Assembly: GCA_020639315.1 (NCBI GenBank)
Contig: JACKGM010000001.1
Location: forward strand, 146,511 to 210,510
DNA from: Candidatus Nomurabacteria bacterium
Lineage (GTDB): Bacteria; Patescibacteriota; Saccharimonadia; JAGOAT01
Direction: 5' to 3'
Length of the DNA: 64,000 nucleotides
The translations under genes were made by a program, and so were the position numbers. This document shows, in pieces, positions 43,814 to 63,345 of the stretch. The notes under the pieces are model-generated. The model worked only from the letters and a program-made list of their open reading frames with translations. It did no database searches and was not told where the DNA came from. Each line of letters starts with the position of its first letter. The stretch's first letter is position 1.

Positions 43814-44193
43814 ACACCTTTACTCATCACACTATATGTCTATATATAAGTATCATCAAAAGGCCTTGGTGGACAAGCCAGCTACACTTAGTAGACTGGT
43901 TACAAATAAACTTAAAGAGCAATGCTACTATAGTAGCACAAGTACCACAGAGGCATGCTAAGGTTTACGAATGAGCCACACCAAAAGCCTACTACCTTTT
44001 ATATACCTAATTTACAAAAATACCAAATCTAATCGAAATATATTATCTGGCGGGACAGTAGAAACGATGTTCGAAACCGCAACACAGCGTGAGTATACCT
44101 CATTGAGTGAGGTAATATATGGCTTGCGAGCCTTCAAGATACTGCTAGAGAACATTTTCAGCAGCACCGCAATAACTGGGGCACTATATAGGT

Positions 44194-44484: not shown

Positions 44485-44878
44485 TGAGATAGTGAGATAT
44501 AGGGCACTGGGGCTGAGCCTTGATAACATCGCCAAAATCACAGACGTAAGCAAGCCAACGGCAGCCACCGTCTGCAAGCAAAGAGCAGATGACATTACAC
44601 AGGCAAAGCTCACAGCCTCACAGGTTGCTGCTACTGATACGGCCGAAGCCATCACAAGGCGTAAGGTTGTTTATGGGCTGCTACTTGATAAGGCGTACAG
44701 CAGCCTGCTAACAAAAGACTTCGATACTATGAAGCCAAAGGAACTCGCAGGTATGATTCACAGCATTGAACGTAGCTTGTACCTGTTGAACGAGCCCAGT
44801 AATATAAAATCCGCGAGCGAGTATAGCAACATTAGTGATGACACGCTAAGGGCTATGCTTCAATCCGTTGCTAACTAA
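44462..44878 (+). CDS. helix-turn-helix protein (element-encoded; possible regulator or recombination directionality factor)
   Basis: The N-terminus LTSNEIVRYRALGLSLDNIAKITDVSKPTAATV looks like an HTH. Start taken at the internal ATG at 44462. A weak hairpin (44885-44908) follows. Confidence 0.5.
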   Translation: MIDLLTSNEIVRYRALGLSLDNIAKITDVSKPTAATVCKQRADDITQAKLTASQVAATDTAEAITRRKVVYGLLLDKAYSSLLTKDFDTMKPKELAGMIHSIERSLYLLNEPSNIKSASEYSNISDDTLRAMLQSVAN

Positions 44879-45062
44879 AAGTTTACCGTTTCTTTACTAG
44901 TAAACGGTGTTCGCTTTCGTCCTTTTGGACTCATCAGCACAAATACACATTTGTGGAGCGAATATGACAAGCAGACATAGGGTTATAGAAAAACATCACG
45001 GAGGCCGTGAACCTAAGGTATGAACCCATATCCACTTGCCATACTCGCTCTGGAGCTTGTTA

Positions 45063-45662
45063 CTAGACGGTGAAGCCTGCCATGGCCTTCTCCGCCTCAC
45101 TGCGACTCGTATGGAAGCCCATGATGACCAGCGGGCCGGTGAGCTCCCACTCGGGGATGTGCTTGGTGCCGGGGTGGCGCGCCGTGCCGATGAAGAACTG
45201 CGCGACGGCTCCGCCGAGGTCACCCTCGTCGTAGCGCTTGAGCGACTCGTCGACGACCTTCTGCAGCCAGGCACGAGCCTCGCAGTCGGGCACGGTGCTG
45301 ACCTCGCCGGTCTGACGAAGCTGGTCGACGACCTTCTGCGCCGAACCGTCGCCGCCGTTGTCGCGGTCGAAGCCCCGCGGGTCGAACGTGTTGTCGTCCG
45401 TGAGGTCGAGCTTGAGACAGCGGCCGTACAGGTAGTCGAAGTAGAGCTCGGGTAGGCCGGGCAGGTTGATGTCACCGTAGTCGGGCGTGACCGTGTTGCC
45501 GAGTTCGGTCAGCTCCGCCGCCCACTCCTTGGTCATGACGTACGGGCCGTTCTGGAACTGCAGGGCACCCATGCGACGTGGAGCCTCGGCGGCGTTGAAT
45601 AGTGCGGCGAGAACGTCGGCCTTGGACAGGTCGGCGATGTTGACGGTGGGTCGGTCGGACAT
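45063..45662 (-). CDS. high-GC hypothetical protein (199 aa), foreign codon usage
   Basis: Only this one of five overlapping frames has protein-like composition. Nearly all codons end in G/C. GAAGGAAGGA lies upstream of ATG 45662 (the track starts at 45683). Confidence 0.65.
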   Translation of the reverse strand: MSDRPTVNIADLSKADVLAALFNAAEAPRRMGALQFQNGPYVMTKEWAAELTELGNTVTPDYGDINLPGLPELYFDYLYGRCLKLDLTDDNTFDPRGFDRDNGGDGSAQKVVDQLRQTGEVSTVPDCEARAWLQKVVDESLKRYDEGDLGGAVAQFFIGTARHPGTKHIPEWELTGPLVIMGFHTSRSEAEKAMAGFTV

Positions 45663-45732
45663 GATGTCTATTCCTTCCTTCATCTCTGGCGGAGGTGCCT
45701 CTCACATAGCGAGCGTGTGTTTTTCCTATACA

Positions 45733-45784
45733 CACAAGATGAGGTGCAAAAGCGGCTATTGCCGCACTTGCACCTCATCTTGTG
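45733..45784. promoter_or_regulatory. 52-bp perfect nested palindrome in divergent intergenic region
   Basis: CACAAGATGAGGTGCAA / TTGCACCTCATCTTGTG (17 bp) encloses GCGGC-tatt-GCCGC. Confidence 0.5.
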
Positions 45785-45995
45785 GTTGTCTGCTTGTCAA
45801 AGTACCTCGGAGTAACTCTTTACTCAACGAGTACATAGATATTAGCATACTTTAGTTATTTTGTCAATACTCAGCTCTGTATACAACCTAGAAAACATCC
45901 AATTTACTGCGTATGCTGGTAATTCGAAGCATAATCAGACCGACAAACATGTAGTAAAATAGTGCACAGAATATATAATCCTTCGAAAAAACGTA

Positions 45996-47637
45996 ATGGA
46001 ACAGTACCAATCAACCCTAGACTACGAAGAACGGAGCAAGATTTACCGCTACAAGATATATGCTCGTAAATCTTCGGAGGAAAAAGGTCGTCAGGTTCGC
46101 TCCATTGACGATCAGATAAAGGACTATCTGGCACTGGCTCACAAGCAAGGCTTGCAAGTCATAGGTGAGCCAATCAAAGAGGAGAAATCAGCGAAAGTTG
46201 CTCTGGCAGACGACCGCTGTTCAAGGCTCTACTGAAAGAGGTGAAGGACGGCAAAATAGACGGCATCATAGCATGGCACCCCGACAGGCTTGCTCGCAAT
46301 ATGGTAGAGGCTGGCAAGATTATAGATATGCTCGATAAGGAGTTGCTGCGTGACCTGAAGTTTCACTCTCACGCTTTTGACAACAGCTCGAACGGCAAGA
46401 TGATGCTCAGTATGCTGTTTGTGTTCGCAAAACACTACTCTGACGACCTGTCGGATAAGGTGAAGCGAGGGGTTAGGAATAGGGCTGGCGAAGGTAAATC
46501 TGGTGGCACACCGAAACATGGCTACAAACAGGTACAGGGTATCTACTCTGTCGATACCCACAATAACAACCACGAGCTGATAAAAACAGCATGGCACATG
46601 AGGGCTGAAGGCACAGCTCTGCCAGAAATAGCGAAGTACCTGAACGACAACCAATACTCGAAGTACTACACCACAGATGATGATTACCGAATAATGAAGG
46701 TAAGCCCAGCAGCCTCAGTAAAATGTTCAACGACCCCTTCTATTTTGGATGGCTAATACAAGATAAAGGCAAAGCATTTTTACCTGATATGGGCGTAGGG
46801 TTCGTGCCGATGATAACCGAGGAGCTATTCACCACAATACAGCTACTCACACACTCCACGCGCAAGGGCAAGACAAAAGCCAATCAAGAGAGGCTACCCC
46901 TGCGAGATGTTATTTATTGCAATATTTTCCACGGTAAAAATGCGATGATACCTAACGTGCCGAGCAGATACAAACCGAACCCCTACCTATACTTGAGCTG
47001 TAAAAATAAGGGGTGTAGCAGAAGCAAGCCAACAAACGTACGCGCAAAAGTGATACTAGAGGCTATAGAGCCAGTGATTGCCGATGTCATTTCGAGGCTC
47101 ACAGGGGACGCGTACAAGGCTTATTTACGTGAAGCAAAGGAACTCTCGTCTACACAGAAAAAAGCCCTCAGGAGCGAGATGGTGAGGCTACAAGCCACAG
47201 TAGAACGCATAAAGAGTGACAACAACGCCTTGTCACTCAGCCTAGCTAAAATGACAGACGAGAACGTAATCAGGGAAACAAACGGCAAGCTATCTGACGG
47301 ACTGAGCGAAATCAACAAGCTGGAGGTCAGGATTGACGAGGCAGAGCGCAAGCTCAAGCGCCAGGAGAGCCAACACAAAGTACTCACACCACAGGAGTTC
47401 AGTGAAATAATCGAAAAAACAGCGTCAGTATATAAAAATGGCGATGTTTCTCGAAAAGAGCGAATAATACGTGAAATGTTTTCGAAATTATCTTATGGTA
47501 AAGAAAAAGTGGAGTCCTACACCTTACAGGAACCGTTCAGAACGCTTCTTGCGGTGTCAAATGACTCCACTGTTTCTCCTGGCGGAGAGGGAGGGATTCG
47601 AACCCTCGCACCAGCTTTCGCCGGTCTACCGGTTTAG
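45996..47637 (+). pseudogene. large serine recombinase, interrupted by two frameshifts (45996-46235 / 46241-46756 / 46723-47637)
   Basis: YARKSSEE nucleophile motif. RRPLFKALLKEVKDGKIDGIIAWHPDRLARN is readable only after a frame change near 46200-46215. SLSKMFNDPFYFGW follows a second shift near 46697-46700. A Cys-rich zinc ribbon and coiled coil follow. The 3' end reads into the tRNA. Confidence 0.8.
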
Positions 47638-47672
47638 CAAACCAGCCCCTTCAGCCACTTGGGTACCTCTCC
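47580..47672 (-). tRNA. tRNA-Ser(GCU), CCA encoded
   Basis: Hand fold: GGAGAGG/CCTCTCC acceptor, anticodon loop TTGCTAA, variable arm ACCGGC-GAAA-GCTGGT, T arm GAGGG-TTCGAAT-CCCTC. Confidence 0.9.
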
Positions 47673-47790: not shown

Positions 47791-48163
47791 AAATACTGGA
47801 TCCCCCGTAAGTTCTCCGAACTTCGGAGGATGACAAGACAAGAGAGAGTGTCGGAGGATGACAATACCCTTTTTGTGTCATATTCCAAAATCCCAGAGGG
47901 ATTTATGGGATATCCAGTATTTGAATTGAATCCCAGAAATACAAAATACTGGATCCCCCGTAAACCCTCTGGGTTTCGGAGGATGACAATGCACAATGCC
48001 AGAATGCTGGATCCCCCGTAAGTTCTCCGAACTTCGGAGGATGACACAAGACAGGGGGCAGGTTTTGGAGGATGACGGAAGAGTAGTAGGCTTCGGAGGA
48101 TGACAATCCCCCTCCTGTCATCTTCGGATTACCCGGAGGGGAATACCGGAGATCCAGTATTTG
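47791..48163. repeat. hairpin-unit repeat cluster
   Basis: At least five units (types 1-3) plus half-units. Followed by the inverted 57-bp module at 48161-48216. Confidence 0.9.
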
Positions 48164-48222
48164 AGCTCGCTATTGAGGCAACAGGTTTAGTAAATCGCAG
48201 GTTGCTTGCGGGTATACTACAC

Positions 48223-49320
48223 TTAAGACCTGAGTGGCATTATTAGCTGTAGTTGGTCTGGATTTACTGGGGAGGAATTGATCACCACTGGGTCGTTTTG
48301 ACTCACGACATTAACTAAGATATCTTCAGAGTCAATCGCCTTAATAGATGGCAATAGATAATTGGCGTTTAGGCTAATATTGAGATCTTCCTTGTCATAA
48401 CTAATAGCAAGATCAGTACTGTTGTGACCAAACTGGGTGTCAGAACTCTTGACAGTCAGATTACCATTTCTAAATAGTAAAGTAATGATATGGGAGTTTT
48501 CCCGAGAGAATACATCTGCCATCCTGATAGCATCAATCAACTCCTGACGATTGAGACTAACTTGATTATTTAATTCAGTTGGTACGATCATTTGATAATC
48601 GGGGAAATTTCCCTCTATTAATCTAGTAATAAATCTAATCTCATCGATGATAAACAAGGCTTGTTTGTCATCTGATAGTACCTGTACCTCTTTAGCCTCA
48701 GATTGAGAGATTATCCTGATTAGTTCTGTCACACTCATTAGTGGCAATAATAACCCTGATTCAATCTGACCTTCAAATCCTATCTTGTATTCAGCCAGGC
48801 GATAGGAGTCAGTTGCTACCAATACCACCTGATCAGATTTTTTATATAAATAAACCGAGGATAGAGAAGGGTGATTTTGATCGACACTAGAGGCAAAAGA
48901 AGTTTTTTGTAGTCCTTCCAAAAGCTGTTCCGATTTTAGCTTTAAAGGCTTAATAGTATTATCAAAACTAATCGTTACGAAATCTTCTGGATTTGCGAGA
49001 TTCAACCTAGAGTCAAACCCCTCACTTACCACTTCGAGCACCCCACCTTCAGCAACAAGTTGTAATTTATCGGCTTTAACATTACTCACGATATCAGTAA
49101 TTAATTTAGCTGGTACCAGGATCTCTCCAGCCACTTCAGTCTTGCAGCCCAATTCATAGATCATTGAAGTTTCTAGGTTACTAGCCTCCAAGACTAGTCC
49201 TTGTTCGTTAGCTTTAAACAGAATATTACTCAATATAGGAAGAGTAGTTTTACCAACTGTAATTCTAGATATGCTGATTAGAGCCTTGGCTAATAGTTTT
49301 TGAGAGACTGATATTTTCAT
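48223..49320 (-). CDS. dnaN: DNA polymerase III beta sliding clamp
   Basis: 365 aa with a three-domain clamp pattern. Directly downstream of dnaA. Confidence 0.9.
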   Translation of the reverse strand: MKISVSQKLLAKALISISRITVGKTTLPILSNILFKANEQGLVLEASNLETSMIYELGCKTEVAGEILVPAKLITDIVSNVKADKLQLVAEGGVLEVVSEGFDSRLNLANPEDFVTISFDNTIKPLKLKSEQLLEGLQKTSFASSVDQNHPSLSSVYLYKKSDQVVLVATDSYRLAEYKIGFEGQIESGLLLPLMSVTELIRIISQSEAKEVQVLSDDKQALFIIDEIRFITRLIEGNFPDYQMIVPTELNNQVSLNRQELIDAIRMADVFSRENSHIITLLFRNGNLTVKSSDTQFGHNSTDLAISYDKEDLNISLNANYLLPSIKAIDSEDILVNVVSQNDPVVINSSPVNPDQLQLIMPLRS

Positions 49321-49526
49321 AGTATTTCCTTTCTAATTAATAATAAATAAAAATAGTAGTAATAGTAAGCTATGTGAATAAATAGGATAAGTAATTATCA
49401 AACCTAAACAAACCAAACAAAATACCAATGAATAAAGGTGTTTGTTGGTTGGGGTGATTTTGGGGAATAAGCCAAATCCAACTAATTGGCTGTTGATAAA
49501 TAGTGAGTTATCCATAGGTTTATCCA

Positions 49527-50861
49527 TTAGTTATTAATTAGCTCCTTTAGGGTATCGCGATCACTTTTGATTTCGGTTTGCTCTTGATCTAGTTGTTTTT
49601 TTATTTTTTTTACCCCATAAAGAATGGTGGTGTGATCACGATTTCCGATAATAGTAGCAATCTGGGGGTAGCTCATATTGAAGTCATAGTAAAATAGATA
49701 CATTGCCATCTGTCTAGGGTAAGCAATCTCACGACTTCGTTTTTGTCCCAGGATATCAGCAACAGATACCTCAAAATATTCAGCAACCCTTTCTAGTACT
49801 TGACGGGGTTTGAGGCGTTTTTTGTTTTTGTTTACCCCAAGGATACCCAATACTTCTTGACTAGTTAGAAGTTGGTTTCTAAGCTGTTGATGGGCACCGA
49901 TCTTCTTGACCGCTCCTTCTAAGTCTCGGATGTTTGATTTGACATTTTCTGCTATTACAGATATTACCTCTTGACTCAGAGAAACTTCACTAGATTTTGC
50001 GGTATTACTGACGATTGCTTCACGGGTTTCGTAGTTTGGTAATTGAATATCGGCTACCATTCCTCCTTCAAATCTCGAACGAAGTCTTTCTTCTAGGGTT
50101 GGGATTTCTCCAGGGGGTCGATCTGAGGTCAGGACAATTTGCTTGTTGGCATGATAGAGTGCGTTGAAGGTGTGAAAGAATTCTTCTTGGGTAGCATCCT
50201 TACCAGCAATAAACTGCATATCGTCTACCAAGAGTAGATCAGCCTTACGGTATTTGTTGGTAAATTTTTGACCCTTTTTAATTGCTGAAATGAATTCGTT
50301 GGTAAAATCTTCAGAGGTAATATAGTGGCTAATAATATCTGGAAAAGCTTGCTTGAGACTGGATTTGATTGCCCAGAGTAAGTGGGTTTTACCAACTCCG
50401 GGTGGACCATAAATAAACAGTGGATTGTAGCGTTCTCCTGGATTTTGGGAGACATGCAAGGCTGCTGCATAGGCAAGGTTGTTGCTTGACCCAACCACAA
50501 AATTACTAAAGGTATATTTATCTAGTAGTCCATTTGTCTTGGTTTGGATTGGGTTTTGAGTCTGGGGCTGGTTGGGGGTTGGTTCGGATTTTGGTTTGTT
50601 GTTACTAGTCTGATAGCTGACTTTGATGCCGGTCTGAGCTAGTTTTTTTTCTAAAACCGCGATTATTTTATTGTTTAGTTTGTCTTTTGCAAATTTTTGA
50701 GCGAAGCTACTATTGAGTACTAATATGTAGCGACTAGGGTCTGATTGGTTCAGCTCAGAGTTTCTAAGCCAGATATATTGGCTACTACTAAGATCAGCCT
50801 GCAACTCACCTAGGCACAGACGCCAAATAGTAGAAAGATTGTGATTGTTTTGCCCCTCCAT
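49527..50861 (-). CDS. dnaA: chromosomal replication initiator DnaA
   Basis: Walker A GPPGVGKTHL, box VII, and a C-terminal DNA-binding domain. Confidence 0.95.
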   Translation of the reverse strand: MEGQNNHNLSTIWRLCLGELQADLSSSQYIWLRNSELNQSDPSRYILVLNSSFAQKFAKDKLNNKIIAVLEKKLAQTGIKVSYQTSNNKPKSEPTPNQPQTQNPIQTKTNGLLDKYTFSNFVVGSSNNLAYAAALHVSQNPGERYNPLFIYGPPGVGKTHLLWAIKSSLKQAFPDIISHYITSEDFTNEFISAIKKGQKFTNKYRKADLLLVDDMQFIAGKDATQEEFFHTFNALYHANKQIVLTSDRPPGEIPTLEERLRSRFEGGMVADIQLPNYETREAIVSNTAKSSEVSLSQEVISVIAENVKSNIRDLEGAVKKIGAHQQLRNQLLTSQEVLGILGVNKNKKRLKPRQVLERVAEYFEVSVADILGQKRSREIAYPRQMAMYLFYYDFNMSYPQIATIIGNRDHTTILYGVKKIKKQLDQEQTEIKSDRDTLKELINN

Positions 50862-50889
50862 TTAGTAATCATTATAGGCTAGGTTATAG

Positions 50890-51000
50890 TTTTCCACAAG
50901 TAAAAATTGCAAGAAATAATAATATTTATCCACAGAAGCCAACTCTCCCTATATCTGTATTTAAGATAAAAAACATTTGTGTGGATAAAACTGTGGAGAA
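50890..51000. other. oriC / dnaA-promoter DnaA-box cluster
   Basis: TTATCCACA is perfect at 50926-50934 and, on the reverse strand, at 50980-50988. One-mismatch boxes lie at 50890-50898 (TTTTCCACA) and 50992-51000 (reverse TTCTCCACA). Confidence 0.75.
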
Positions 51001-51009
51001 AATAAAGAC

Positions 51010-51038
51010 TTGTATTTTTATGAGGTTTTAGCTATAAT
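51010..51038 (+). promoter_or_regulatory. sigma70-type promoter of rpmH operon
   Basis: TTGTAT, 17 nt spacer, TATAAT; 9 bp upstream of the rpmH ATG. Confidence 0.5.
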
Positions 51039-51047
51039 AACCAAGTT

Positions 51048-51182
51048 ATGAGTTTAACCTACAGAGCCAAGAAACGTAAAAGACAGCGCAAGCACGGGTT
51101 TTTTAAGAGAATGTCAACCCGAGCAGGTAGAGCTGTATTGGCTAGAAGAAGAAACAAATTACGCAAAAGACTTACGGTCTAG
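51048..51182 (+). CDS. rpmH: 50S ribosomal protein L34
   Basis: Hand translation: [44 protein letters not shown] (44 aa, below the track cutoff). Confidence 0.9.
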
Positions 51183-51200
51183 ATTTGGGTAGGTTGGCTG

Positions 51201-51569
51201 ATGCTTGCTAGAAGCCAGAGATTGAGAGAGTCTGGGCTAATTCAGATGGTTTTAAGGAGAGGCAAGAGGGTTGATCTGGGTTGGGCGAAGCTATATCTGG
51301 GAAGGTTTGATAAAAAAAGATCATATAACCAGATCGGTCAGCTAAGAGCTGCAGTGATTGTCAGTAAAAAAGTTAGCAAGAAAGCAACAGTTCGCAACCA
51401 AATTAAAAGAAAAATCTATGAGCAATTAAGGCTACTGACTAGAGAACAAGCAGAAGTCTATGATATAGTAATAGTCGTGAGACAAGAAGTCTCCCAGCTT
51501 GATTCAAGTATGATTTATCAAAAGATATCAAGGGCAATGATAAGGGACAATAAAAATGGTTGCAAATAA
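51201..51569 (+). CDS. rnpA: ribonuclease P protein component
   Basis: Basic 122-aa protein immediately after rpmH, in the conserved order rpmH-rnpA-yidD-yidC. Confidence 0.75.
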   Translation: MLARSQRLRESGLIQMVLRRGKRVDLGWAKLYLGRFDKKRSYNQIGQLRAAVIVSKKVSKKATVRNQIKRKIYEQLRLLTREQAEVYDIVIVVRQEVSQLDSSMIYQKISRAMIRDNKNGCK

Positions 51570-51789
51570 ACTAGCAATTAGACTAATAAAAGTCTATCAA
51601 GCAACTCTTTCACCCGATCATGGCCTGATGAAATTTCGTTATCCTTTTGGGTACTGTTCCAGTCCAGAGACATGTAGTGAGTATGGTCTTAGGCAGTATC
51701 AAGAACAGGGATTTTTGAGAGCAACAATTAATACTACTAAAAAAATCATAAGCTGTAACCCACTGGAGGGAAGAAAAAATAATGGATAA
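51556..51789 (+). CDS. yidD: membrane protein insertion efficiency factor YidD
   Basis: LIKVYQATLSP...CS.PETCSEYG...SCNP. Confidence 0.85.
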   Translation: MVANKLAIRLIKVYQATLSPDHGLMKFRYPFGYCSSPETCSEYGLRQYQEQGFLRATINTTKKIISCNPLEGRKNNG

Positions 51790-52555
51790 GTTATTTAGCT
51801 TTTTGATTACACCAATGCTTAATCTACTAATGCTAATATATGCATTGCTGCCCGGTAACGATTTTGGGATTGCAGTAATCATAGTGACAATTATTATTAG
51901 GTTAATACTATGGCCTCTCAATAGCAAGCAACTTCATTCTCAGAAAAAGCTTCGGACACTACAGCCTAAGATCCAAAAGATCAAGAAGCAGGCCAAAGGC
52001 GATCGCCAGAAAGAGCAGGCCTTGCTCGCCCAGCTCTATAAGGATGAAGAAGTTAATCCGGCCGGTTCGTGCTTGATGGCAATAGTCCAGCTTCCTTTTA
52101 TGACCTCACTGTATTTTGTTTTTCAGAAGAGCTCGAAGGATTTTGGAGATGTCTTCAATAGTCTTTATGGGTTTTTGCAAAACAACCAATTCATCCTAGA
52201 TCTTAAGAACAACCCCAGCTTGTACGATCCAAGTTTGCTTGGATTTATTCACCTCACAAAGCCCAGTATAGTTTTGGCAGTTTTGGCGGGTCTTGGCCAG
52301 TTTATCCAAACAAGGATGTTACAAGCCAATCAGTCTAAAGATAGGTCAAAGGATAAGAAAAGACAGCCCAACCCCCAAGAAGATATGATGAAGGGTATGA
52401 CCTATGCTTTTCCCCTATTTACAATATTTATTGGTAGTAGATTGCCAGCGGCTCTTTCGCTTTATTGGCTAGTATCTACTATTGTAAGTATTATTCAACA
52501 ACATCTAGTATTAAATAAGGAAGTAAAGAAGATGGAAGGGGGTGACAATGAATAA
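51782..52555 (+). CDS. yidC: membrane protein insertase YidC (short form)
   Basis: AVIIVTIIIRLILWPL, KIQKIKKQ and the C-terminal TM helices. Confidence 0.9.
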   Translation: MDKLFSFLITPMLNLLMLIYALLPGNDFGIAVIIVTIIIRLILWPLNSKQLHSQKKLRTLQPKIQKIKKQAKGDRQKEQALLAQLYKDEEVNPAGSCLMAIVQLPFMTSLYFVFQKSSKDFGDVFNSLYGFLQNNQFILDLKNNPSLYDPSLLGFIHLTKPSIVLAVLAGLGQFIQTRMLQANQSKDRSKDKKRQPNPQEDMMKGMTYAFPLFTIFIGSRLPAALSLYWLVSTIVSIIQQHLVLNKEVKKMEGGDNE

Positions 52556-52982
52556 CCAAGAGATACTAGATTGGCTAGGGCGAGTAATAGGACTATTTGA
52601 TCAGGATGCCAAGCTTGAATACGGTGATTTGGACAAACCAGAGTTTAGGGTAGTGTCAGAAGACAGCTTAGTAATAAAAAACCGAGCAGAGATTATCAAA
52701 GCATTAGAATACCTAATCAGTCAAATTGCTCCATACCAGGAAGGAATTAGGCCAAGCCTAGATATCAACGGTTACAAAAAAGAACGCCAAGAAAAGTTAA
52801 TGATGATGGCAGAAAACACTGCAGATCAAGTCGTTGGTACTGGTAGAGACAAGGTTTTGCCAGAAATGAACAGTTTTGAAAGAAGGATTATCCATATAGT
52901 ACTTGCTGATCGGGATGATGTCGTTACCGAAAGTGTTGGTGAAGGTAGGCTAAAAAGGGTTAAGATTTTGCCCAAACAATGA
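52542..52982 (+). CDS. jag: RNA-binding protein Jag/KhpB (KH + R3H)
   Basis: R3H motif ERRIIHIVL. Located downstream of yidC. Confidence 0.8.
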   Translation: MTMNNQEILDWLGRVIGLFDQDAKLEYGDLDKPEFRVVSEDSLVIKNRAEIIKALEYLISQIAPYQEGIRPSLDINGYKKERQEKLMMMAENTADQVVGTGRDKVLPEMNSFERRIIHIVLADRDDVVTESVGEGRLKRVKILPKQ

Positions 52983-53530
52983 AGCTAATAGCTGAACCCC
53001 TAAAAGGGGTAAAGGTTATCGAAGGGGAGAGGTATAAAGACCTCAGGGGTCATTTCAATCAAGTTAGTCAGCAAGACCAGCTACGAGAGGTAGGAGTCGA
53101 TCAGAGATTTGTTCAGACTAACCACGCCTTTTCGTATCAAAATGTTATTAGGGGTCTGCATTACCAGACTAACCAAGCAAAACTGATTTACTTGGTCAGT
53201 GGTAAGGTCTTAGATGTGTTTGTGGATGTTAGGCATGACTCATCAGATTTTGGCAAATGGGGAAGTGTTTGGCTGGAACAATCAGATACCAAGCTAGTCT
53301 ATATACCAGTTGGTGTTTTACACGGTTTTGTAACTGTATCCAAAAAGAGTAACCTTATCTATCAGATGACTGCCAATTGGGATCCAGCTAAAGAAGGAGG
53401 GATTAATCCTTTAGACCCTAGATTGGATATAAATTGGCCATTAGTAGGAAGTGCAATATTATCTGACAAGGATAAAAGCTCCCAGGCTTTTGGTCAAATT
53501 GATTGGGAGTTAATACAGTGGCAGATGTAA
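52979..53530 (+). CDS. rfbC: dTDP-4-dehydrorhamnose 3,5-epimerase
   Basis: YKDLRGHFNQV and RGLHYQ motifs on a cupin fold. Confidence 0.85.
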   Translation: MKLIAEPLKGVKVIEGERYKDLRGHFNQVSQQDQLREVGVDQRFVQTNHAFSYQNVIRGLHYQTNQAKLIYLVSGKVLDVFVDVRHDSSDFGKWGSVWLEQSDTKLVYIPVGVLHGFVTVSKKSNLIYQMTANWDPAKEGGINPLDPRLDINWPLVGSAILSDKDKSSQAFGQIDWELIQWQM

Positions 53531-54381
53531 TCATACTTGGATCTAGAGGTCAACTAGGAGTAGAGTTAAGCTTGCGGATTGATGGAGCTAGGCAATACTC
53601 ACACCAAGACATAGATATCACTGATTTAAAACAGTTAAGGTTAGTCAGGATAGATCAAGACAGTTTAGTAATCAACGCTGCCGCTTATACCAATGTAAAT
53701 TTAGCTGAGATAGAGCAAGAAGCTGCCTGGAAGGTTAATGCCAATGCTTCAGCAAATCTAGCGATCTGGACTCAAGAGGCAGGTGCTAGATTAATTAATA
53801 TCTCTACAGATTATGTGTTTAATAAAGATTATCGAGATTCCGGTAAGTATGGTGGTATATTGAGCTCCGAGACGCCTAACCCAATTTCGACATATGGCAT
53901 TAGTAAAGCTGCAGGGGAGTTGGCTACTACTCTTAATCCGAGAAGCTACAACATTAGGACCACTTGTGTCTATGGGTCAGGTAACAATTTTGTCCGGACA
54001 GTCTTGAGGTTGGCTAAAGAGGCTGGGACACTGAAAATGATCAATGACCAGCTAACTAGACCGACTTGGGCGGGTGACTTGGCTGAGTTTATTATAGCTC
54101 TGACTACTAGAGGCGATCACCAATTTGGGACTTATCATTATACCAATTCCGGGGAAGTGGTAAGCTGGTTTGAGCTTGCTAACTATATTGTTATGCAGGC
54201 AAAAGTCGAAGCGAAAGTCTTACCGATTGGTACCAAGCAGTATATAGAGATGCAAGCAGATCAGGTAATTGCACCGAGACCAAAATATGCGATTCTAGAT
54301 ATTAACAAGGAATCAAAGATATATGATGCCGATTGGAAAGATAGTCTTAGAGCTTATTTAAAAGCAGAGCTTAAGAAGTGA
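53518..54381 (+). CDS. rfbD: dTDP-4-dehydrorhamnose reductase
   Basis: ILGSRGQLG Rossmann motif and YGISKAAGE. GTG 53518 is preferred (GGGAG lies 8 nt upstream) over the track TTG at 53503. Confidence 0.8.
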   Translation: MADVIILGSRGQLGVELSLRIDGARQYSHQDIDITDLKQLRLVRIDQDSLVINAAAYTNVNLAEIEQEAAWKVNANASANLAIWTQEAGARLINISTDYVFNKDYRDSGKYGGILSSETPNPISTYGISKAAGELATTLNPRSYNIRTTCVYGSGNNFVRTVLRLAKEAGTLKMINDQLTRPTWAGDLAEFIIALTTRGDHQFGTYHYTNSGEVVSWFELANYIVMQAKVEAKVLPIGTKQYIEMQADQVIAPRPKYAILDINKESKIYDADWKDSLRAYLKAELKK

Positions 54382-55400
54382 AGATCCTAATTACCGGTGG
54401 AGCAGGGTTTATTGGTAGTAATTTTGTCAGATATATGGCTACTAGTTACCCAGATTATCAGTACTTGGTACTAGATAAGCTGACCTATGCCGGGAATTAC
54501 TCCAATATAGAAGAACTGGTTGAGCAAGGAAAGGTAAGATTTATCAAAGCAGATATTGGCAATCCTGCAGAACTCGAACAGTTGTCTAGCGAGGGGATCA
54601 ATCAAATAGTGAATTTTGCAGCCGAAACCCATGTCGATAGGTCTATCACTGATCCAGGATTGTTTATTAGGACCAATATTCTAGGGGTTAATAACCTACT
54701 AGACTTGGCAAGGAGGTTAGAGATCAGATTTCATCAAGTATCAACCGATGAGGTATTTGGTAGTCTCTCACTAGTGAATCTTGATGCTAAGTTCTTAGAG
54801 ACAACTCCATATGACCCCAGGTCACCCTACTCAGCTTCAAAAGCTGGGGCAGATCATCTCGTCAATGCCTATCATCACACCTATGGTCTATGGACTACAA
54901 TCAGTAATTGTTCCAATAATTATGGACCGTATTGTTACCCGGAGAAGTTAATACCGTATTTTGTTATCAGTATGACCAAAGGTCTCAATGTGCCAGTCTA
55001 TGGTAATGGTAAGAATATCCGAGATTGGCTATATGTGGAGGATCATTGCCGGGCAATTGATCAGATTATTCATCATGGGAGAGCTGGGGAAAGTTATTGT
55101 GTTGGTGGGGGAGAGGAAAAGTCTACGATCGAGATTGCTGATATTATAGCTGATCAGCTTGGATTGGATTATGAACCAAAAGTTTTTACTAAGGATCGGC
55201 CTGGGCATGATCAAAGGTATGCGATAGATCATACTAAAATATCAACCGAGCTGGGGTACAAACCTCAGTACAGCTTTGAAAGTGGGATTAGACAGACTAT
55301 TGACTGGTATCTAACCAATCCAGGTTGGTGGGAGCCGTTACTGAGTGGGCTTAAGAAACAGGACTTTATAGACAGTGGGAAATTTTTGTCAAGCTTGTAG
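54378..55400 (+). CDS. rfbB: dTDP-glucose 4,6-dehydratase
   Basis: TGGAGFIGSNF and YSASKAGADHL motifs. Confidence 0.9.
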   Translation: MKILITGGAGFIGSNFVRYMATSYPDYQYLVLDKLTYAGNYSNIEELVEQGKVRFIKADIGNPAELEQLSSEGINQIVNFAAETHVDRSITDPGLFIRTNILGVNNLLDLARRLEIRFHQVSTDEVFGSLSLVNLDAKFLETTPYDPRSPYSASKAGADHLVNAYHHTYGLWTTISNCSNNYGPYCYPEKLIPYFVISMTKGLNVPVYGNGKNIRDWLYVEDHCRAIDQIIHHGRAGESYCVGGGEEKSTIEIADIIADQLGLDYEPKVFTKDRPGHDQRYAIDHTKISTELGYKPQYSFESGIRQTIDWYLTNPGWWEPLLSGLKKQDFIDSGKFLSSL

Positions 55401-55409
55401 GTATACAAA

Positions 55410-56600
55410 ATGCCTTTAATCGACTTACGCAAAACCTCGGGCTCTCCAGGATCATTTTCCAGTGATTCAGAAGTTATTTTATCTGATGGAAGCGATACCT
55501 TAGTATCGGCGACAGCAGAAAAAGGAGTTCTGGACACTGGAGGTGAGTCTGGGAGCTCAGGGATTTTGCGTAAGTCAAGTTTAAGAGAGCTAAGTTTAAA
55601 CAATTTTAGAAATTACCATAGCCTAGATTTTGAGTTTAGTGCACCGATTACGGTAATAATAGGACAAAACGGCAGAGGTAAGACAAATCTAATCGAAGCG
55701 ATTTATCTGACTAGCCTCAGTAAATCGTGGAGAACAAAGGATCAGAATCTAATCGGGGAGGGAGGTCAGGGTTACAAGGTTCAGGCTGATTGGGTCGAGC
55801 ACAAGATTTCAGTCGAGTATCATCCAGATACCAGGAAGGTGATTAAGCGATCTGGTATAGAGATCAAGCCTGGGCAGCTAGTGGGGCTTAGTCCATTAGT
55901 ATTGTTTGAGCCCAGTAGTCTAAACTTATTTATTATGGGACCCAGTTATCGCAGGGGCTACTTAGACCAGACGCTTTGCCAGATAAGTAGCCATTATTTA
56001 GTCAAGCTCAATAAATATAATAAGGTAATGAGGCAGCGTAATCAGGCGCTCAAGCAACAATTGAGTCAGGATTTGATATTTGCCTACAATTTACAGCTGG
56101 TTGAGTATGGGTGGTTTATTTATGAGCAGAGGACAAGGCTTATAGACTACTACAATCAGAATCTCAGCCATTGGTACCAGGAGATCAGTGGTCAGAAAGA
56201 AGATATAGCAATAGATTATCTAAGCAACCTGGGCTCTGATCCAGACCAATATCTGCTAAATCTAGAGAAAAGTTTTAGTAAAGATATAGTCAGGCAATCT
56301 ACCTCAATCGGTATTCATCATGATGATATCTTAGTAAAAATTGACGATCAAGAAGTGAGGGACTATGCTAGTCGGGGTGAAAGTCGGACCGTGGTACTGG
56401 CAATGAAGCAAGTAGAGCTAATCTATATTGAAGAGGTTCTAGGGAAAAATGCGATTTTACTGCTCGATGATGTGGTGAGTGAGCTTGACTATTTAAGGCG
56501 CAAACAGCTTGTGGCAATGCTCGGCAAGCAGCAGTCGATTATTACAACTACAGAAGCAATTTCAGATCTACCTGATAGCTCTACGGTTTTCAGCCTTTAG
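55410..56600 (+). CDS. recF: DNA replication and repair protein RecF (start uncertain; TTG 55566 would remove a Ser/Gly-rich extension)
   Basis: LSLNNFRNY, Walker A GQNGRGKTNLIEAI and the LLLDDV signature. Confidence 0.85.
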   Translation: MPLIDLRKTSGSPGSFSSDSEVILSDGSDTLVSATAEKGVLDTGGESGSSGILRKSSLRELSLNNFRNYHSLDFEFSAPITVIIGQNGRGKTNLIEAIYLTSLSKSWRTKDQNLIGEGGQGYKVQADWVEHKISVEYHPDTRKVIKRSGIEIKPGQLVGLSPLVLFEPSSLNLFIMGPSYRRGYLDQTLCQISSHYLVKLNKYNKVMRQRNQALKQQLSQDLIFAYNLQLVEYGWFIYEQRTRLIDYYNQNLSHWYQEISGQKEDIAIDYLSNLGSDPDQYLLNLEKSFSKDIVRQSTSIGIHHDDILVKIDDQEVRDYASRGESRTVVLAMKQVELIYIEEVLGKNAILLLDDVVSELDYLRRKQLVAMLGKQQSIITTTEAISDLPDSSTVFSL

Positions 56601-56640
56601 AACTTGTTATAACAAGCCTTCCAATCGTCAAATCAATACC

Positions 56641-57450
56641 GAATGCTGGATCCCCCGTAAGTTCTCCGAACTTCGGAGGATGACAATGCCCTCTGTGTGT
56701 CATCTTCGGATTACCCGGAGGGTAATACCGGAGATCCAGTATTTGAATTGAATTCCAGAAATGCAAAATACTGGATCCCCCGTAAGTTCTCCGAACTTCG
56801 GAGGATGACAATCCTCTCCCTGTCATATTCCAAAATCCTGTAAGGATTTATGGGATATCCAGTATTTGAATTGAACCCCAGAAATGCAAAATACTGGATC
56901 CCCCGTAAACCCTCTGGGTTTCGGAGGATGACTAATGCTCTGGATCCCCCGTGAGTTCTCCGAACTTCGGAGGATGACAATCCTCTCCCTGTCATATTCC
57001 AAAATCCCAGAGGGATTTATGGGATATCCAGTATTTGAATTGAACCCCAGAAATGCAAAATACTGGATCCCCCGTAAGTTCTTTGAACTTCGGAGGATGA
57101 CAATGCACAATGCCAGAATACTGGATCCCCCGTAAGTTCTCCGAACTTCGGAGGATGACAATGCCCTTCCGTGTCATCTTCGGATTTCTCTAAAAGAGAA
57201 ATACCGGAGATCCAGTATTTGAATTGAATTCCAGAAATGCAAAATACTGGATCCCCCGTAAGTTCTTTGAACTTCGGAGGATGACAATGCACAATGCCAA
57301 AATACTGGATCCCCCGTAAGTTCTCCGAACTTCGGAGGATGACAAGAGAAAGGTGGGGTTTCGGAGGGATGACAAGAGGGAGACGGAGTTTCGGAGGATG
57401 ACAGGACAGGAACGAGTTTCGGAAGAGGATAGAAGATGACTCGGAGGGTA
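56641..57450. repeat. largest hairpin-unit array (~810 bp, 12+ units and 3-4 half-units)
   Basis: Alternating forward type-1 and reverse type-2/3 units are joined by ccagtatttgaattgaayyccagaaatgcaaaatactgg linkers. Ends with 28-29 bp half-unit reiterations. Confidence 0.95.
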
Positions 57451-57624
57451 CTAATTTGGGCAGATCTATTGTAGGATAAATATAGCCACCGCAAGACAAA
57501 ACCTGTCTATTTTGAGCGATGGATTGTGAGCCGAGAATATTAATAATAGCTTTGTTGGTTGTTAGTTTTACCTTGGGAATCGCTTGCACCTACTATTGTC
57601 TTTAGAATAATGCACTCAGCTATT

Positions 57625-57785
57625 AACCCTGTTGCCATATAAACTTGCGAGGTCAAAGCTGATGATTTTTATTCCAGAATAGCAAAACACGACAAAGCAT
57701 AACAGGAGTCACGCTGCGAAGTGTTTTGCTAGTCTGGGGCAAAAATGGCAGTTTCGAAGCCGTGAGGTTATATGGCAACAGGGTT
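57625..57785 (+). mobile_element. 161-bp MITE, family 1, copy 2
   Basis: Same ends and ATT flanking duplication. Three differences from copy 3. Ends 44 bp upstream of the Mur ligase ATG. Confidence 0.9.
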
Positions 57786-57829
57786 ATTATTGTAATATTA
57801 TTGTTCAGGATATTAAAAAAGGAGATAAA

Positions 57830-59149
57830 ATGGTGAAAAAGTTTCTTAAAAAAATTGTTCCCCAGTCAGTTTTTAACTTGTATCACTTGGGGTGGTCGGT
57901 TGGCTCAAATCTGTATTACCGATTTCCGAGCAAGAAGCTAACGGTAATCGCAATCAATGGGTCAAAAGGTAAGACTACTACAGCCAATATGGTTAGGCAG
58001 ATTCTGGAGGCCAATGGAGATAAGGTCGGGATGATTAGTACAGCCAATATTGTGATCGGCAAGACCGAAAAGCTCAACCCCTATCATATGACCATGCCAG
58101 GCAGGACTAAATTACAGAAATTGATTAGATCAATGGTTGATCAGGGGTGTAAATACCTAATCCTAGAAGTTACTTCTGAAGGGCAGGTACAGTATAGGCA
58201 CTGGGGGCTAAATATAAACTACTTGGTTTATCTCAACCTTACTGATGAAAGGCAAGAGGCTCATGGATTTAGCTATCAGAGGATGAAGCAGGATAATGCG
58301 AAAATGTTTAGGACGATGGCAAGGCAAAATAATCTAGATCGAGGTCAGGGTCAAGTAAAAAGGCTTTTAATAATCAATAGAGATGATAATGAGGCAGAGT
58401 TTTATATTGGGCAGTATGGATACGCAACCAAAAGTTTTGGCAAGAAGCAAGAATACGACTATCATCTAGGAGAGATTACAGAGGACAAGTCCGGGGTTAG
58501 TTTCAGGGTAAATAACAGTAAGTACCATATTCCGATTGGTGGTAGCTTCAATGGGGATAATGCTTTGGCAGCGATTGCTGTCACTAGTGAGATTGGGGTT
58601 AGTCAAGAGATTATTACTAAGACCCTTAATAATCTTGAGCAAATACCAGGGCGATTTGAGAGAATTAGTCAGGGACAAGATTTTGAAGTGATTGTGGATT
58701 ATGCCTACGAACAAGCAGGTATCAAGGGTCTTTTGGAATCGGTCAATAAAATAAAAGGTCCTGAATCAAAAGTCTGGGTTCTGATCGGTGGTCAAGGAGG
58801 GGGTCGCGATAAGAAGAAACGGCCAGAAATAGGTAAGATCGCGATGGAAAATGCTGATAAGGTAATAGTCACAGATGATGATCCATATGAAGAAGACCCA
58901 ATCAGTATCATCAAAGACATTGAAAAGGGTATCAGGGAGGTTTCGAAAGCTAAAGACCAAGATTACTTTTTGATTCAAGACAGAAGAGAGGCGATTGCTT
59001 TTGCCCTAAGATCTGCCCAGCCCCAAGACGTCGTGGTAATAGCTTGCAAAGGGGCAGACCAACTAATGATGCGCAAAGAGGGACCGATACCTTGGGATGA
59101 TCGGGCAGTAGTGCGAGAAGAGCTTAAAGCACTGGTAGGGAGTAGATAA
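57830..59149 (+). CDS. Mur ligase family protein (MurE-like)
   Basis: AINGSKGKTTT P-loop. Central and C-terminal Mur ligase domains (EVTSEG, IACKGADQ...PWDD). AGGAG RBS. Confidence 0.6.
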   Translation: MVKKFLKKIVPQSVFNLYHLGWSVGSNLYYRFPSKKLTVIAINGSKGKTTTANMVRQILEANGDKVGMISTANIVIGKTEKLNPYHMTMPGRTKLQKLIRSMVDQGCKYLILEVTSEGQVQYRHWGLNINYLVYLNLTDERQEAHGFSYQRMKQDNAKMFRTMARQNNLDRGQGQVKRLLIINRDDNEAEFYIGQYGYATKSFGKKQEYDYHLGEITEDKSGVSFRVNNSKYHIPIGGSFNGDNALAAIAVTSEIGVSQEIITKTLNNLEQIPGRFERISQGQDFEVIVDYAYEQAGIKGLLESVNKIKGPESKVWVLIGGQGGGRDKKKRPEIGKIAMENADKVIVTDDDPYEEDPISIIKDIEKGIREVSKAKDQDYFLIQDRREAIAFALRSAQPQDVVVIACKGADQLMMRKEGPIPWDDRAVVREELKALVGSR

Positions 59150-60173: not shown

Positions 60174-60282
60174 TATAGCAAGTCAAAAACAAAACCAGAC
60201 TTTTGACCCAGCTCTAGAGTCTATAAAGCTAGTTTTCTATAGTACAGCTCAAATTGTCCGGTTTTGTTTTGAGTTTGCTATA
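60174..60282 (+). mobile_element. family-2 MITE with internal deletion (109 bp)
   Basis: Both ends are conserved. The central ~55 bp are missing between ctagtt(t)tc direct repeats. Contains the intact target site of the family-1 MITE. Confidence 0.75.
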
Positions 60283-60315
60283 TACTGTGCCACTAATCAG
60301 TATTTTGGTTAGCCA

Positions 60316-60525
60316 CTAGAAATGCAAAATACTGGATCCCCCGTAAACTCCTTCGAAGTTTCGGAGGATGACAATGCACAATGCCAGAATACTGGATCCC
60401 CCGTAAGTTCTCCGAACTTCGGAGGATGACAAGACCTCCTCAATCACCAGCCCAAATTTCCGTCCCCTTCCTCCGTCATCTTCGGATTACCCGAAGGGTA
60501 ATACCGGAGATCCAGTATTTGCATT
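60316..60525. repeat. hairpin-unit repeat cluster
   Basis: Two forward type-1 units, one degenerate unit and one reverse type-2 unit. Confidence 0.9.
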
Positions 60526-62628: not shown

Positions 62629-62746
62629 TTGTTTTTGTTTGCTCCTTAACGTACTGTTTTTAAGACCGTTTATGTTTATAGTACATAGTATTTGATAAAA
62701 ATGCAAATTTAACTTATTAGATTTGTTCCTAATAATAAACCCGACC

Positions 62747-63074
62747 TATAGCAAGCCCAAACCAAAACCAGACTTTTGACCCAACTCTAGAATCTATAAC
62801 CCTGTTGCCATATAAACTTGCGAGGTCAAAGCTGATGATTTTTATTCCAGACTAGCAAAACACGACAAAGCATAACAGGAGTTACGCTGCGAAGTGTTTT
62901 GCTAGTCTGGGGCAAAAATGGCAGTTTTGAAGCCGTGAGGTTATATGGCAACAGGGTTTATAAAGCTAGTTTTCTTACTCACCATATCTATGGATATGGC
63001 TCTTAAGAAGAACTAGCTTTCTAGTTCTCTATAGTACAGCTCAAATTGTCCGGTTTTGGTTTGGGCTTGCTATA
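62747..63074 (+). mobile_element. family-2 MITE carrying a nested family-1 MITE (164+161+3 bp)
   Basis: The outer sequence matches 11168-11331 (reverse complement) except for the 161-bp insert plus a TAT duplication. Confidence 0.9.
62798..62958 (+). mobile_element. 161-bp MITE, family 1, copy 3 (nested)
   Basis: Flanked by a TAT/TAT duplication. Its internal 17-bp stem is perfect. Confidence 0.9.
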
Positions 63075-63100
63075 TCAAAACTATCTAGTGGTAGCAAGGC

Positions 63101-63345
63101 TTGTCATCCTCCGAAGTTCAGAGAACTTACAGGGGATCCAGGGCATTAGTCATCCTCCGAAACCCAGAGGGTTTACGGGGGATCCAGTATCTCTGCATTT
63201 ACAGGTATTCAATTCAAATACTGGATCTCCGGTATTTCTCCCTTGGAGAAATCCGAAGATGACAGGAGAGGGTGGATCTCCGGTATTACCCTCCGGGTAA
63301 TCCGAAGATGACGCGAAGTGGGCGGAAATTTGGAAGATGACACTA
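63101..63345. repeat. hairpin-unit repeat cluster
   Basis: Two reverse type-1 units, two forward type-2 units and half-units. Confidence 0.9.

Follow-up and report, generated by a model that had tools for sequence, protein, structure and literature searches.

Repeat clusters and the ssn gene in the replication-origin region

The stretch analysed here (contig JACKGM010000001.1, positions 146,511 to 210,510; 64 kb, referred to as the window) is the replication-origin region of a member of Candidatus Saccharibacteria. It includes rpmH-rnpA-yidD-yidC-jag, dnaA, dnaN and recF, and its GC skew flips near 44-50 kb. Fourteen intergenic clusters in the window are built from one hairpin-forming unit, which on one strand reads as a TGTC tag, a palindrome and a CCAG tail. 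ssn, located between the first two clusters, codes for a 99-aa single-domain GIY-YIG protein. Judging by their sequence, the repeats are lineage-specific, structurally extended Ssn-related motifs (SRMs), i.e., CGTC/TGTC-tagged repetitive extragenic palindromes (REPs) of the superfamily to which the dRS3/NTS repeats of Neisseria belong. By analogy with the latter, we consider it likely that the repeats and ssn constitute an Ssn/SRM pair working as in Neisseria.

The clusters had been described in a preceding note on this DNA (the initial annotation) as copies of one module in fourteen intergenic places, covering about 3.9 kb or about 6% of the window, with roughly 60 units by hand count. The covariance model proposed there was built from 29 distinct units and run over the window with filters off. 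It finds 56 full units, 50 of them scoring >=54 bits, and all 56 fall within the same fourteen clusters, whose summed length is 3,868 bp (6.04% of the window). A regular expression combined with a stem test gives 52 units with 32 distinct cores in the window, one core being present in nine identical copies. The sequence ATACTGGAT occurs 38 times in the window against 0.9 expected, and the subtype-neutral pattern AATACTGGATNNCCNNTAN{10,26}GANNATGACA 26 times against 0 expected. Every unit is intergenic, and most lie between same-strand genes. Unit counts in the following list are those of the covariance model.

2651-2856: cluster 1, directly downstream of ssn; 3 full units and one half-unit (matches at 2663(+), 2751(-) and 2802(-))
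2859-3158 (-): ssn, 99-aa single-domain GIY-YIG protein, between clusters 1 and 2
3253-3352: cluster 2, about 95 nt upstream of the ssn start codon; 1 full unit and 2 half-units (match at 3252)
5911-5966: cluster 3, between divergent transglutaminase-like and pyruvate kinase genes; one degenerate unit (match 5924-5964, 36 bits)
10800-11166: cluster 4, between the pyrophosphatase and triosephosphate isomerase genes; 4 units and half-units
12528-12935: cluster 5, between the DUF4234 and fpg genes; 6 units
17296-17484: cluster 6, between the T4SS-pilin and dnaJ genes; 3 units and a truncated 5' piece
21777-22004: cluster 7; 4 units
29556-29896: cluster 8; 5 units and half-units
35185-35386: cluster 9; 4 units
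43681-43813: cluster 10, left edge of a GC-rich island; 1 unit preceded by 3 half-units
47791-48163: cluster 11, between tRNA-Ser and the 3' end of dnaN; 5 units and half-units
56641-57450: cluster 12, the focal cluster; 12 full units and a half-unit run at the right end
56744-56766: example of the conserved 23-nt spacer of tag-outward pairs, TGAATTGAAYYCCAGAAATGCAA
57345-57450: half-unit array; 3-4 degenerate half-units with a period of about 29-30 nt
60316-60525: cluster 13, between tRNA-Met and divIC; 3 units
63101-63345: cluster 14; 4 units and one half-unit

ssn is the sole gene of its kind in the 64-kb window. The N-terminal part of the mechanically called open reading frame (ORF) 2859-3296(-) is read-through of a repeat unit; the true product is the 99-aa protein at 2859-3158(-), which is exactly what the NCBI annotation gives. 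The read-through, LSSSEVRRTYGGSSIP, is a spurious extension of the kind the initial annotation had ascribed to the units, and similar cases occur in the metagenomic contig L005. A literature search on spurious hairpin-encoded peptides (VIPAKAGIQ, PAFAGMT and others) returned nothing useful. The same annotation saw no candidate transposase in the window and passed over a nuclease gene flanked by the repeats themselves.

In a Pfam search the ssn product matches PF01541 (GIY-YIG) only (E 2.4e-13, 50.6 bits). The experimentally characterised relative is SsnA of N. meningitidis (NMV_0044/NMB0047), a 94-aa single-domain GIY-YIG protein assigned to cd10448 (Chenal 2025, Nat Commun, PMC11893778). The ssn product is 52% identical to the 94-aa SsnA orthologue of N. 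gonorrhoeae in a gap-free alignment over 92 of the 94 residues (E 2e-33; 50-52% along its full length); this orthologue is encoded at a single locus with seven NTS within 700 bp. Y11, Y22 and E69 of the ssn product align with the catalytic Y6, Y17 and E64 of SsnA, and all 21 invariant columns of a 31-sequence family alignment are kept. By the published definition of a homologue (single-domain GIY-YIG protein of <150 aa, BLAST E<1e-10, >=75% of the length) the product belongs to the Ssn family; motifs are found within 500 bp of the gene on both sides. A PDB sequence search returned only weak matches to Slx1 and UPF0213 (E 0.03-0.13), and a PADLOC search was uninformative.

The ssnA gene is typically flanked by its motif, 42% of the homologues having SRMs on both sides, and the association of ssn genes with flanking SRMs is statistically strong across phyla (PMC11893778). 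In the window, units 2802-2848 and 2751-2798 lie downstream of ssn and unit 3252-3295 upstream, so both sides are occupied within about 100 nt. The flanking units recur in three other assemblies, the cluster 1 flank among them. The homologues in Aeromonas, Azospirillum and Vibrio metschnikovii have canonical short-loop SRMs on both flanks, and a 63%-identical metagenomic homologue has at least one SRM nearby, on at least one side. A strain-level difference was seen beside the gene: in assembly contig L023 (2139-2269, corresponding to 2751-2848 of the window) the second unit downstream of ssn is of another subtype (ATCTCCTA../..TGGAAGAT, apical stem AATTTCC) than in the window and two other assemblies.

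The best non-self homologues of the ssn product are proteobacterial (55-63% identity). This exceeds the identities of housekeeping proteins outside the genus, where RecF homologues are at most 39% and pyruvate kinase homologues at most 49% identical, which suggests that ssn was acquired horizontally.

Anatomy of the units and their relation to CGTC REPs and SRMs

On the strand used in the initial annotation, a unit runs from (A)ATA-CTGG through a basal stem of 8 bp, a bulged T and an apical stem of 6-7 bp with a loop of 3-5 nt to GACA. On the opposite strand it reads TGTC-ATCCTCCG-[A-apical hairpin-A]-CGGGGGAT-CCAG. DNA folding reproduces the architecture that had been folded by hand, with -7.8 kcal/mol on the former strand and -9.4 kcal/mol on the TGTC strand. 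The near-invariant columns on the former strand are T6, G7, G8, A9, T10, C13, C14, T17 and A18, the partner T of A18, the G and A opposite C14 and C13, and the 3'-end A, T, G, A and C.

The irregularities of the stem are as constant as the initial annotation had reported. The mismatch column has C in 55/56 units and A in 55/56, C13 facing A in 55 of the 56, and the bulged T is present in 53/56. Read from the TGTC strand, which folds better, the mismatch becomes a T·G wobble (the G-T pair that had been foreseen for this strand) and the bulged T a bulged A. The strand originally chosen thus shows a real hairpin but is opposite to the one cut by the Ssn family. The invariant C/A mismatch and bulged T are best understood as the opposite-strand image of the wobble and the bulged A on the strand that would be read.

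Basal-stem positions 3, 4, 7 and 8 vary with compensation always present. The number of basal-stem subtypes is at least seven, so the existence of multiple subtypes stands while the earlier count of at least four was too low. The apical stem, described from the start as hypervariable yet self-complementary, exists in about ten distinct self-complementary versions. Stems of 10 bp and loops of 3-4 nt characterise two short subtypes (10829-10865 and 12686-12721).

Covariation between the two arms, first noticed in the basal stem, extends to ten of the 14 stem pairs, which change on both sides. Among distinct units, 95.8% of the cells are paired against 75.7 +/- 1.3% in shuffles, with 0 of 500 shuffles reaching the observed value, and there are 87 compensatory cells where 28 are expected; the relatedness of the copies makes this shuffle control overstate the significance. 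When the 3' partner is slid by 1-3 columns, pairing falls to 31-57%. This slid-partner control, together with the large number of independent apical-stem sequences, still speaks for real selection on pairing.

The clusters are mosaics of units in alternating orientation joined by a small vocabulary of linkers, in line with the inverted pairs noted at the outset. Within any cluster, cluster 12 included, type 1 units face opposite to types 2 and 3. Adjacent units form 11 tag-outward (HH), 15 tag-inward (TT) and 16 tandem (HT) pairs. The HH spacers measure 22-25 nt in ten of 11 cases and are mostly near-identical, TT spacers are variable, and four of the 16 tandem pairs carry the spacer ATGCACAATGCCAR. 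Cluster 12, with units starting at 56642, 56698, 56767, 56821, 56890, 56936, 56990, 57059, 57117, 57172, 57243 and 57301, is composed of 151-162-nt blocks in three repeats. Many clusters end in half-unit arrays with a 29-30-nt period, always located 5' of a full type 1 unit; on the TGTC strand a half-unit has a pyrimidine-rich spacer and, after it, the tag and only the two 5' arms. A similar array is present in the related contig L005. The orientation of the 56 units shows no replication or transcription bias (19/18 left and 7/12 right of the origin), and visual, non-statistical inspection of the cluster edges revealed no target-site duplications.

CGTC-tagged REPs were defined by a terminal unpaired CGTC, often TGTC and in some cases CCTC, an 8-9-bp stem starting with A-T and T-A, and a CCA tail (Di Nocera 2013, PMC3733652). 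They form tag-outward dimers with conserved spacers and include dRS3 of Neisseria, RPE-4/6 of Rickettsia and CGTC-4 of Wolbachia; the superfamily was reported from five phyla, mostly from Alphaproteobacteria (PMC3733652). None of its families is associated with RAYT, IS200 or other transposase genes, even in genomes encoding RAYT/IS200 (PMC3733652). NTS is the oriented 28-nt form CGTCATTCCCGCGMAVGCGGGAATCYRG, which is bound and cut by SsnA (PMC11893778). The enzyme cuts NTS as single-stranded DNA (ssDNA) only, on one strand only and a few nucleotides upstream; RNA is not bound (PMC11893778). Mutagenesis in the N. meningitidis system found the C after the palindrome to be the most sensitive position for binding and the 3 nt before the palindrome for cleavage, and altering the palindrome with the hairpin kept abolished activity (PMC11893778). 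Replacing the loop by extensions, whether unrelated or lengthening the stem, leaves SsnA able to cut in vitro (PMC11893778).

The units of the window carry an HGTC tag directly 5' of the palindrome in 55 of 56 cases (TGTC 44, AGTC 7, CGTC 4, GGTC 1 listed); on the other strand GAC is present in 55/56. The palindrome starts with AT and ends with AT in 54-56 of the 56 units and is followed by CCAG, whose first C is present in 55/56. The SsnA-sensitive positions on either side of the palindrome, 3 nt before it and the C behind it, are near-invariant. The initial annotation had taken the fixed flanks and stem irregularities for a protein-recognition signature, which is what they look like. When the loop of the published SRM pattern is widened to 0-30 nt, it has 45 matches in the window, 42 of which are units in clusters; loop length is the only term of the pattern from which the units depart. 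The unpaired tag, the 8-9-bp stem with A-T and T-A first and the CCA-like tail of CGTC REPs are all found in the units, and their 4-5-nt loop gives way to a bulged base and a 6-7-bp apical stem capped by a 3-5-nt loop.

BLAST of the widespread hairpin CTGGATTCCCGC..GCGGGAATGAC against a plasmid collection gave matches in Neisseria, Azospirillum, Legionella, sphingomonads, Cupriavidus, Photobacterium and Aeromonas, several records having multiple copies. In Photobacterium sp. GJ3 (NZ_CP073579.1), seven ATGGATTCCCGCCTGCGCGGGAATGAC copies about 200 nt apart form a regular array of canonical-type hairpins at 2655-3940, and the same replicon encodes an Ssn homologue elsewhere. The subtype-neutral pattern matched three single hairpins with the same flanks in genome contigs of unrelated phyla (Cloacimonadota, Rhodomicrobium and Gracilibacteria). 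In metagenome contigs it matched two short contigs of close relatives and one chance match, and in viral contigs nothing. The distant matches are uninformative on wobble conservation, as the search pattern itself fixed the mismatch C and A. Inspection of the translated ORFs beside two of them (L002 and L003) revealed no obvious enzyme. A cyanobacterial repeat family (HIP1, SDR or Nezha-type) was considered as well and rejected: HIP1 occurs once, and the proteins are those of Saccharibacteria.

Comparison with the sister genome

The sole close relative on record is GCA_017983775.1 (RecF 71%, pyruvate kinase 82% identical), and synteny with this sister genome is perfect across both loci compared. 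Its 20-kb second locus holds 5-6 units of the same special shape, wobble and bulge included. One of them, degenerate, aligns with unit 10932-10977 of cluster 4 at the same place and is orthologous to it. The 17.5-kb origin locus of the sister has no unit where the window has clusters 10-13, and the position of cluster 6 is empty as well; a comparison of orthologous regions, suggested by the initial annotation and run here against one sister, finds presence/absence differences. At cluster 13 the window has about 310 nt inserted in comparison with the sister, and the right edge of the insertion is sharp. At the position of cluster 1, ssn and cluster 2, the sister has a two-unit tag-outward dimer with no gene between the units. 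No sister ssn was found among the nuclease homologues, though the metagenome-assembled genome (MAG) of the sister may be incomplete.

The 56 units in 64 kb of the window compare with 5-6 in 20 kb and 0 in 17.5 kb of the sister, an about ten-fold difference in density. Since the sister has units of the same shape, one of them orthologous to a cluster 4 unit, the hairpin family predates the split of the two lineages and has multiplied about ten-fold in the one that keeps ssn. Cluster content differs between strains. This, together with the many identical copies (nine of one core), points to recent activity.

At the position of cluster 12, the sister has no units and, between recF and murE, a gene for an 895-aa RND-type transporter (ACR_tran). 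Comparison of window interval 56600-57830 with sister interval 11026-13982 by tblastn revealed no trace of the transporter in the window, where this interval holds the largest repeat cluster and a copy of a miniature inverted-repeat transposable element (MITE). The difference reflects either gene loss at the cluster or gene gain in the sister.

The clusters also coincide with breaks in assemblies. One contig of a fragmented MAG (8.6 kb) spans exactly from cluster 11 to cluster 12 (window 48078-56680), and such contig ends imply that the repeats break short-read assemblies of this lineage. In metagenomic contig L005 (positions 1-930, compared with window 17664-18578), an about 190-nt unique spacer and the first cluster 6 units are 95-100% identical to those of the window. 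Beyond the shared part it has a different run of units and a 294-aa protein of unknown function in place of dnaJ. The junction is either a rearrangement at the cluster or a chimeric low-coverage (1.7x) assembly. L005 and L006, the latter diverging just after another repeat, a MITE, were set aside as evidence of insertion polymorphism; they are suggestive, and the low coverage with a different gene in L005 and the divergence of L006 may be assembly artefacts.

Several other features were observed in the window. A GC-rich island of about 3.6 kb (43970-47640; GC about 0.50 against about 0.42 for the window) has no clean long ORF, is bracketed by clusters 10 and 11, abuts tRNA-Ser(gct) 47580-47672(-) and is missing from the sister. 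Its ORF 46241-46756(+) matches the N-terminal domain of resolvases (E 1.5e-11). A 304-aa ORF follows and overlaps it, and the two probably represent one large serine recombinase, split by a frameshift, from a degraded integrative element. The island (43.97-47.6 kb) was considered as the source of a partner for the repeats and rejected as such a degraded element with serine-recombinase fragments. It also contains a match resembling a type III hammerhead ribozyme at 44909-44963(-) (38.4 bits, below the gathering threshold of 48.5; E 6.5e-6 in a 4.2-kb search). A second repeat family, an about 165-nt palindromic MITE-like element, is present at 39744-39909, 57622-57787 and 62797-62961 in 97-99% identical copies; it folds as one long hairpin, giving a spurious miRNA-like Rfam match, and is unrelated to the hairpin units. 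A third short repeat, approximately TTGTCCGGTTTTGNTTTGRGCTTGCTATA, occurs in both orientations near 11160-11200, 60256-60290, 62745-62790 and 63041-63075, beside clusters and the MITE. The 148-aa ORF 29981-30427(+) directly downstream of cluster 8 has RNase H / RVT_3 domains and is probably an ordinary RNase HI.

Interpretation and relation to known systems

If the ssn product acts as N. meningitidis SsnA does, its activity would start where DNA turns single-stranded, e.g., in incoming transforming DNA, at the replication fork or during repair. The strand 5'-TGTC-AT..AT-CCAG-3' would fold as a hairpin, and the nuclease would bind it at the basal stem of 8 bp, at the GTC tag and at the C that directly follows the palindrome, cutting a few nucleotides 5' of the tag. 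It would act neither on double-stranded DNA or RNA nor on the opposite strand. We propose that the flanks and basal positions 1, 2, 5 and 6 are invariant because the enzyme reads them, while the apical stem is hypervariable yet covarying because it occupies the unread loop position where pairing alone is needed. The tolerance of SsnA to loop extensions would account for an apical stem that may change freely provided that it stays paired. Restriction or modulation of recombination by motif-carrying ssDNA is a likely consequence, as is local growth and reshuffling of the clusters; a role in ssDNA handling would fit a group known to be naturally competent (Saccharibacteria; PMC10633639).

Several points weigh against a pair of the neisserial kind. 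The strict published SRM pattern, HGTCWYN(0-2)YYVSBRHN(0-5)WNVSBRGN(0-2)RNCYNB, has 0 matches in the window because the loops are 12-20 nt long instead of 0-5. Basal-stem positions 3, 4, 7 and 8 differ among the at least seven subtypes, and one enzyme may not serve them all given that a change of the palindrome abolished activity in N. meningitidis. The sister keeps units of the same shape with no detectable ssn; thus either the units persist without the enzyme or its MAG is incomplete. As about a quarter of intergenic regions carry a cluster, two flanking clusters are estimated to occur by chance around roughly 6% of genes. The SsnA reference was the N. gonorrhoeae orthologue translated here and not the N. 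meningitidis entry CAX49033.1, and an NCBIfam search of the nuclease returned no match. It is also possible that another enzyme is encoded beyond the 64 kb viewed.

The initial annotation favoured REP/REPIN elements mobilised by an HUH Y1 transposase (RAYT or IS200-type TnpA) encoded elsewhere. Such elements would be consistent with imperfect hairpins that have a fixed, unpaired flank, with inverted doublets folding as long hairpins (-25.5 kcal/mol, z -6.2), with the mosaics resembling bacterial interspersed mosaic elements (BIMEs) and with the lack of target-site duplications at cluster edges. The REP/BIME-like description was indeed sound as far as imperfect ssDNA hairpins and mosaic clusters go, yet the elements are neither undescribed nor of the RAYT type, since TGTC-AT..AT-CCAG matches CGTC REPs and SRMs. 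The tag is TGTC/CGTC and not GTAG, CGTC families have no RAYT/IS200 association (PMC3733652), the flanked gene encodes a GIY-YIG nuclease instead of the expected Y1 enzyme, and no Y1 domain was found among the 26 window ORFs scanned. A Y1 partner is very unlikely. Literature searches linking Saccharibacteria or the Candidate Phyla Radiation (CPR) with REP or RAYT found nothing. MITEs moved by a DDE transposase, whose terminal inverted repeats would be the outward ends of doublets, are scarcely credible: clusters usually end with AATACTGG pointing outward, giving 19-nt imperfect inverted repeats, but target-site duplications were not seen, units standing singly are common, as are half-units, the internal spacers are repeated modules in their own right, and the window has no transposase gene.

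A structured-RNA alternative had been offered as well, in which the units act mainly as stabilising or terminating hairpins or as processed small RNAs and the G·U wobble is an RNA feature. Stable hairpins between mostly same-strand genes agree with it, and G·T pairing in REP stems has been read elsewhere as a sign of RNA function. We nevertheless find it quite unlikely, as units of both orientations occur in the same cluster and follow neither transcription nor replication, T-runs are missing, the flanks, invariant and unpaired, belong to the type seen at a DNA-enzyme site, and RNA is not bound by SsnA (PMC11893778). An Rfam 15 scan gave only tRNAs at gathering thresholds, with no family match to the units even at E<=10 and only sub-threshold miRNA-like hairpin matches in the focal cluster. 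A side effect of the units at the RNA level is possible. The hairpins could also be relics with no working partner, the adjacent GIY-YIG gene being coincidental or inactive on them. That no unit matches the strict SRM pattern, that the sister keeps units without ssn and that CGTC REPs were long thought to have no dedicated enzyme speaks for relics. The about ten-fold unit density relative to the sister, the signs of recent activity, the retention of all catalytic residues by the ssn product and the strong ssn-SRM flanking association across phyla (PMC11893778) argue in the opposite direction, and relics are unlikely.

An Ssn/SRM pair of the neisserial kind remains our preferred reading. A more far-reaching version of it is possible but doubtful: the two-tier hairpin, in which an obligatory T·G wobble and a bulged A go together with a freely variable apical stem, may be a new Ssn/SRM recognition architecture, and the nuclease itself may drive the multiplication of its sites. 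Copying would then proceed without a transposase, e.g., by cut-and-repair or reinsertion of released ssDNA, and the half-unit arrays might be its footprints. This idea arises from the same hairpin type, the gene-less dimer at the ssn locus and the about ten-fold fewer units in the sister.

The kind of system is already known (since 2013 and 2025). As far as the searched literature shows, the new elements are the host phylum, a two-tier hairpin that the published motif definition fails to capture, the wobble and bulge conserved in it, the density of units in a reduced genome and a natural comparison of genomes with and without ssn. Here an Ssn/SRM pair would operate in the CPR, in a naturally competent group with a very small genome that gives about 6% of this region to the repeats; Ssn biology outside Neisseria and the multiplication of hairpin sites are questions which the locus addresses, and the related genome pair makes it testable whether the nuclease spreads its own sites. 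The units are a natural confirmation that long paired extensions are accommodated at the SRM loop position. It follows that entire families go unseen by the published motif definition and that the diversity of SRMs is underestimated. A new cleavage specificity could be set by the conserved wobble and bulge, and these enzymes are proposed as ssDNA tools by the Ssn authors (PMC11893778). In practical terms, the clusters break short-read assemblies, and MAG contigs end exactly at them.

Among known systems, the subterminal hairpins of IS200/IS605 elements (IS608, ISDra2) resemble the units in one-strand recognition of an imperfect hairpin with an extrahelical base; they are the ends of a TnpA-encoding element, and the window has no such element or enzyme. 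REP/BIME of E. coli and REPINs of Pseudomonas with their RAYT are alike in short imperfect ssDNA hairpins beside a fixed unpaired motif, in alternating mosaic clusters with few linkers, in an enzyme gene flanked by its own repeats and in doublets resembling gene-less derivatives of the gene-carrying element. They differ in the GTAG tag and in the HUH Y1 transposase that cleaves and rejoins, whereas the enzyme in the window is a nuclease of the GIY-YIG type, for which no joining activity is known. Neisseria NIMEs (RS units bounded by dRS3) share clusters of dRS3-type hairpins, recurring spacer modules and concentration at particular genes. Their spacer modules and hairpin shape are different, and dRS3 in Neisseria is also an integration target of filamentous prophages, of which there is nothing in the window.

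CGTC REPs are closer. The tag, the stem, the CCA tail, the conserved HH and variable TT spacers, the intergenic sites and the lack of RAYT are common to them and the window; unlike the window units, they have 4-5-nt loops, occur mostly as tag-outward dimers and rarely form clusters, while here the 15 TT and 16 HT pairs exceed the 11 HH pairs and large clusters are usual. With Ssn/NTS-SRM, the window has in common the (H)GTC tag, the AT-first 8-bp stem, the C-Y-R-G tail and a small single-domain GIY-YIG gene with repeats on both sides, 52% identity and the catalytic residues kept. The host is a Saccharibacterium, of a phylum absent from the main text of PMC11893778, and where NTS has its loop the units have a bulged base and a variable stem of 6-7 bp closed by a 3-5-nt loop. 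The conserved core differs from canonical NTS only at stem position 5 (C->T, giving T·G for C-G) and at the first tag base (TGTC for CGTC), and the hundreds-scale copy density in this symbiont resembles that reported for other SRM-rich species (PMC11893778).

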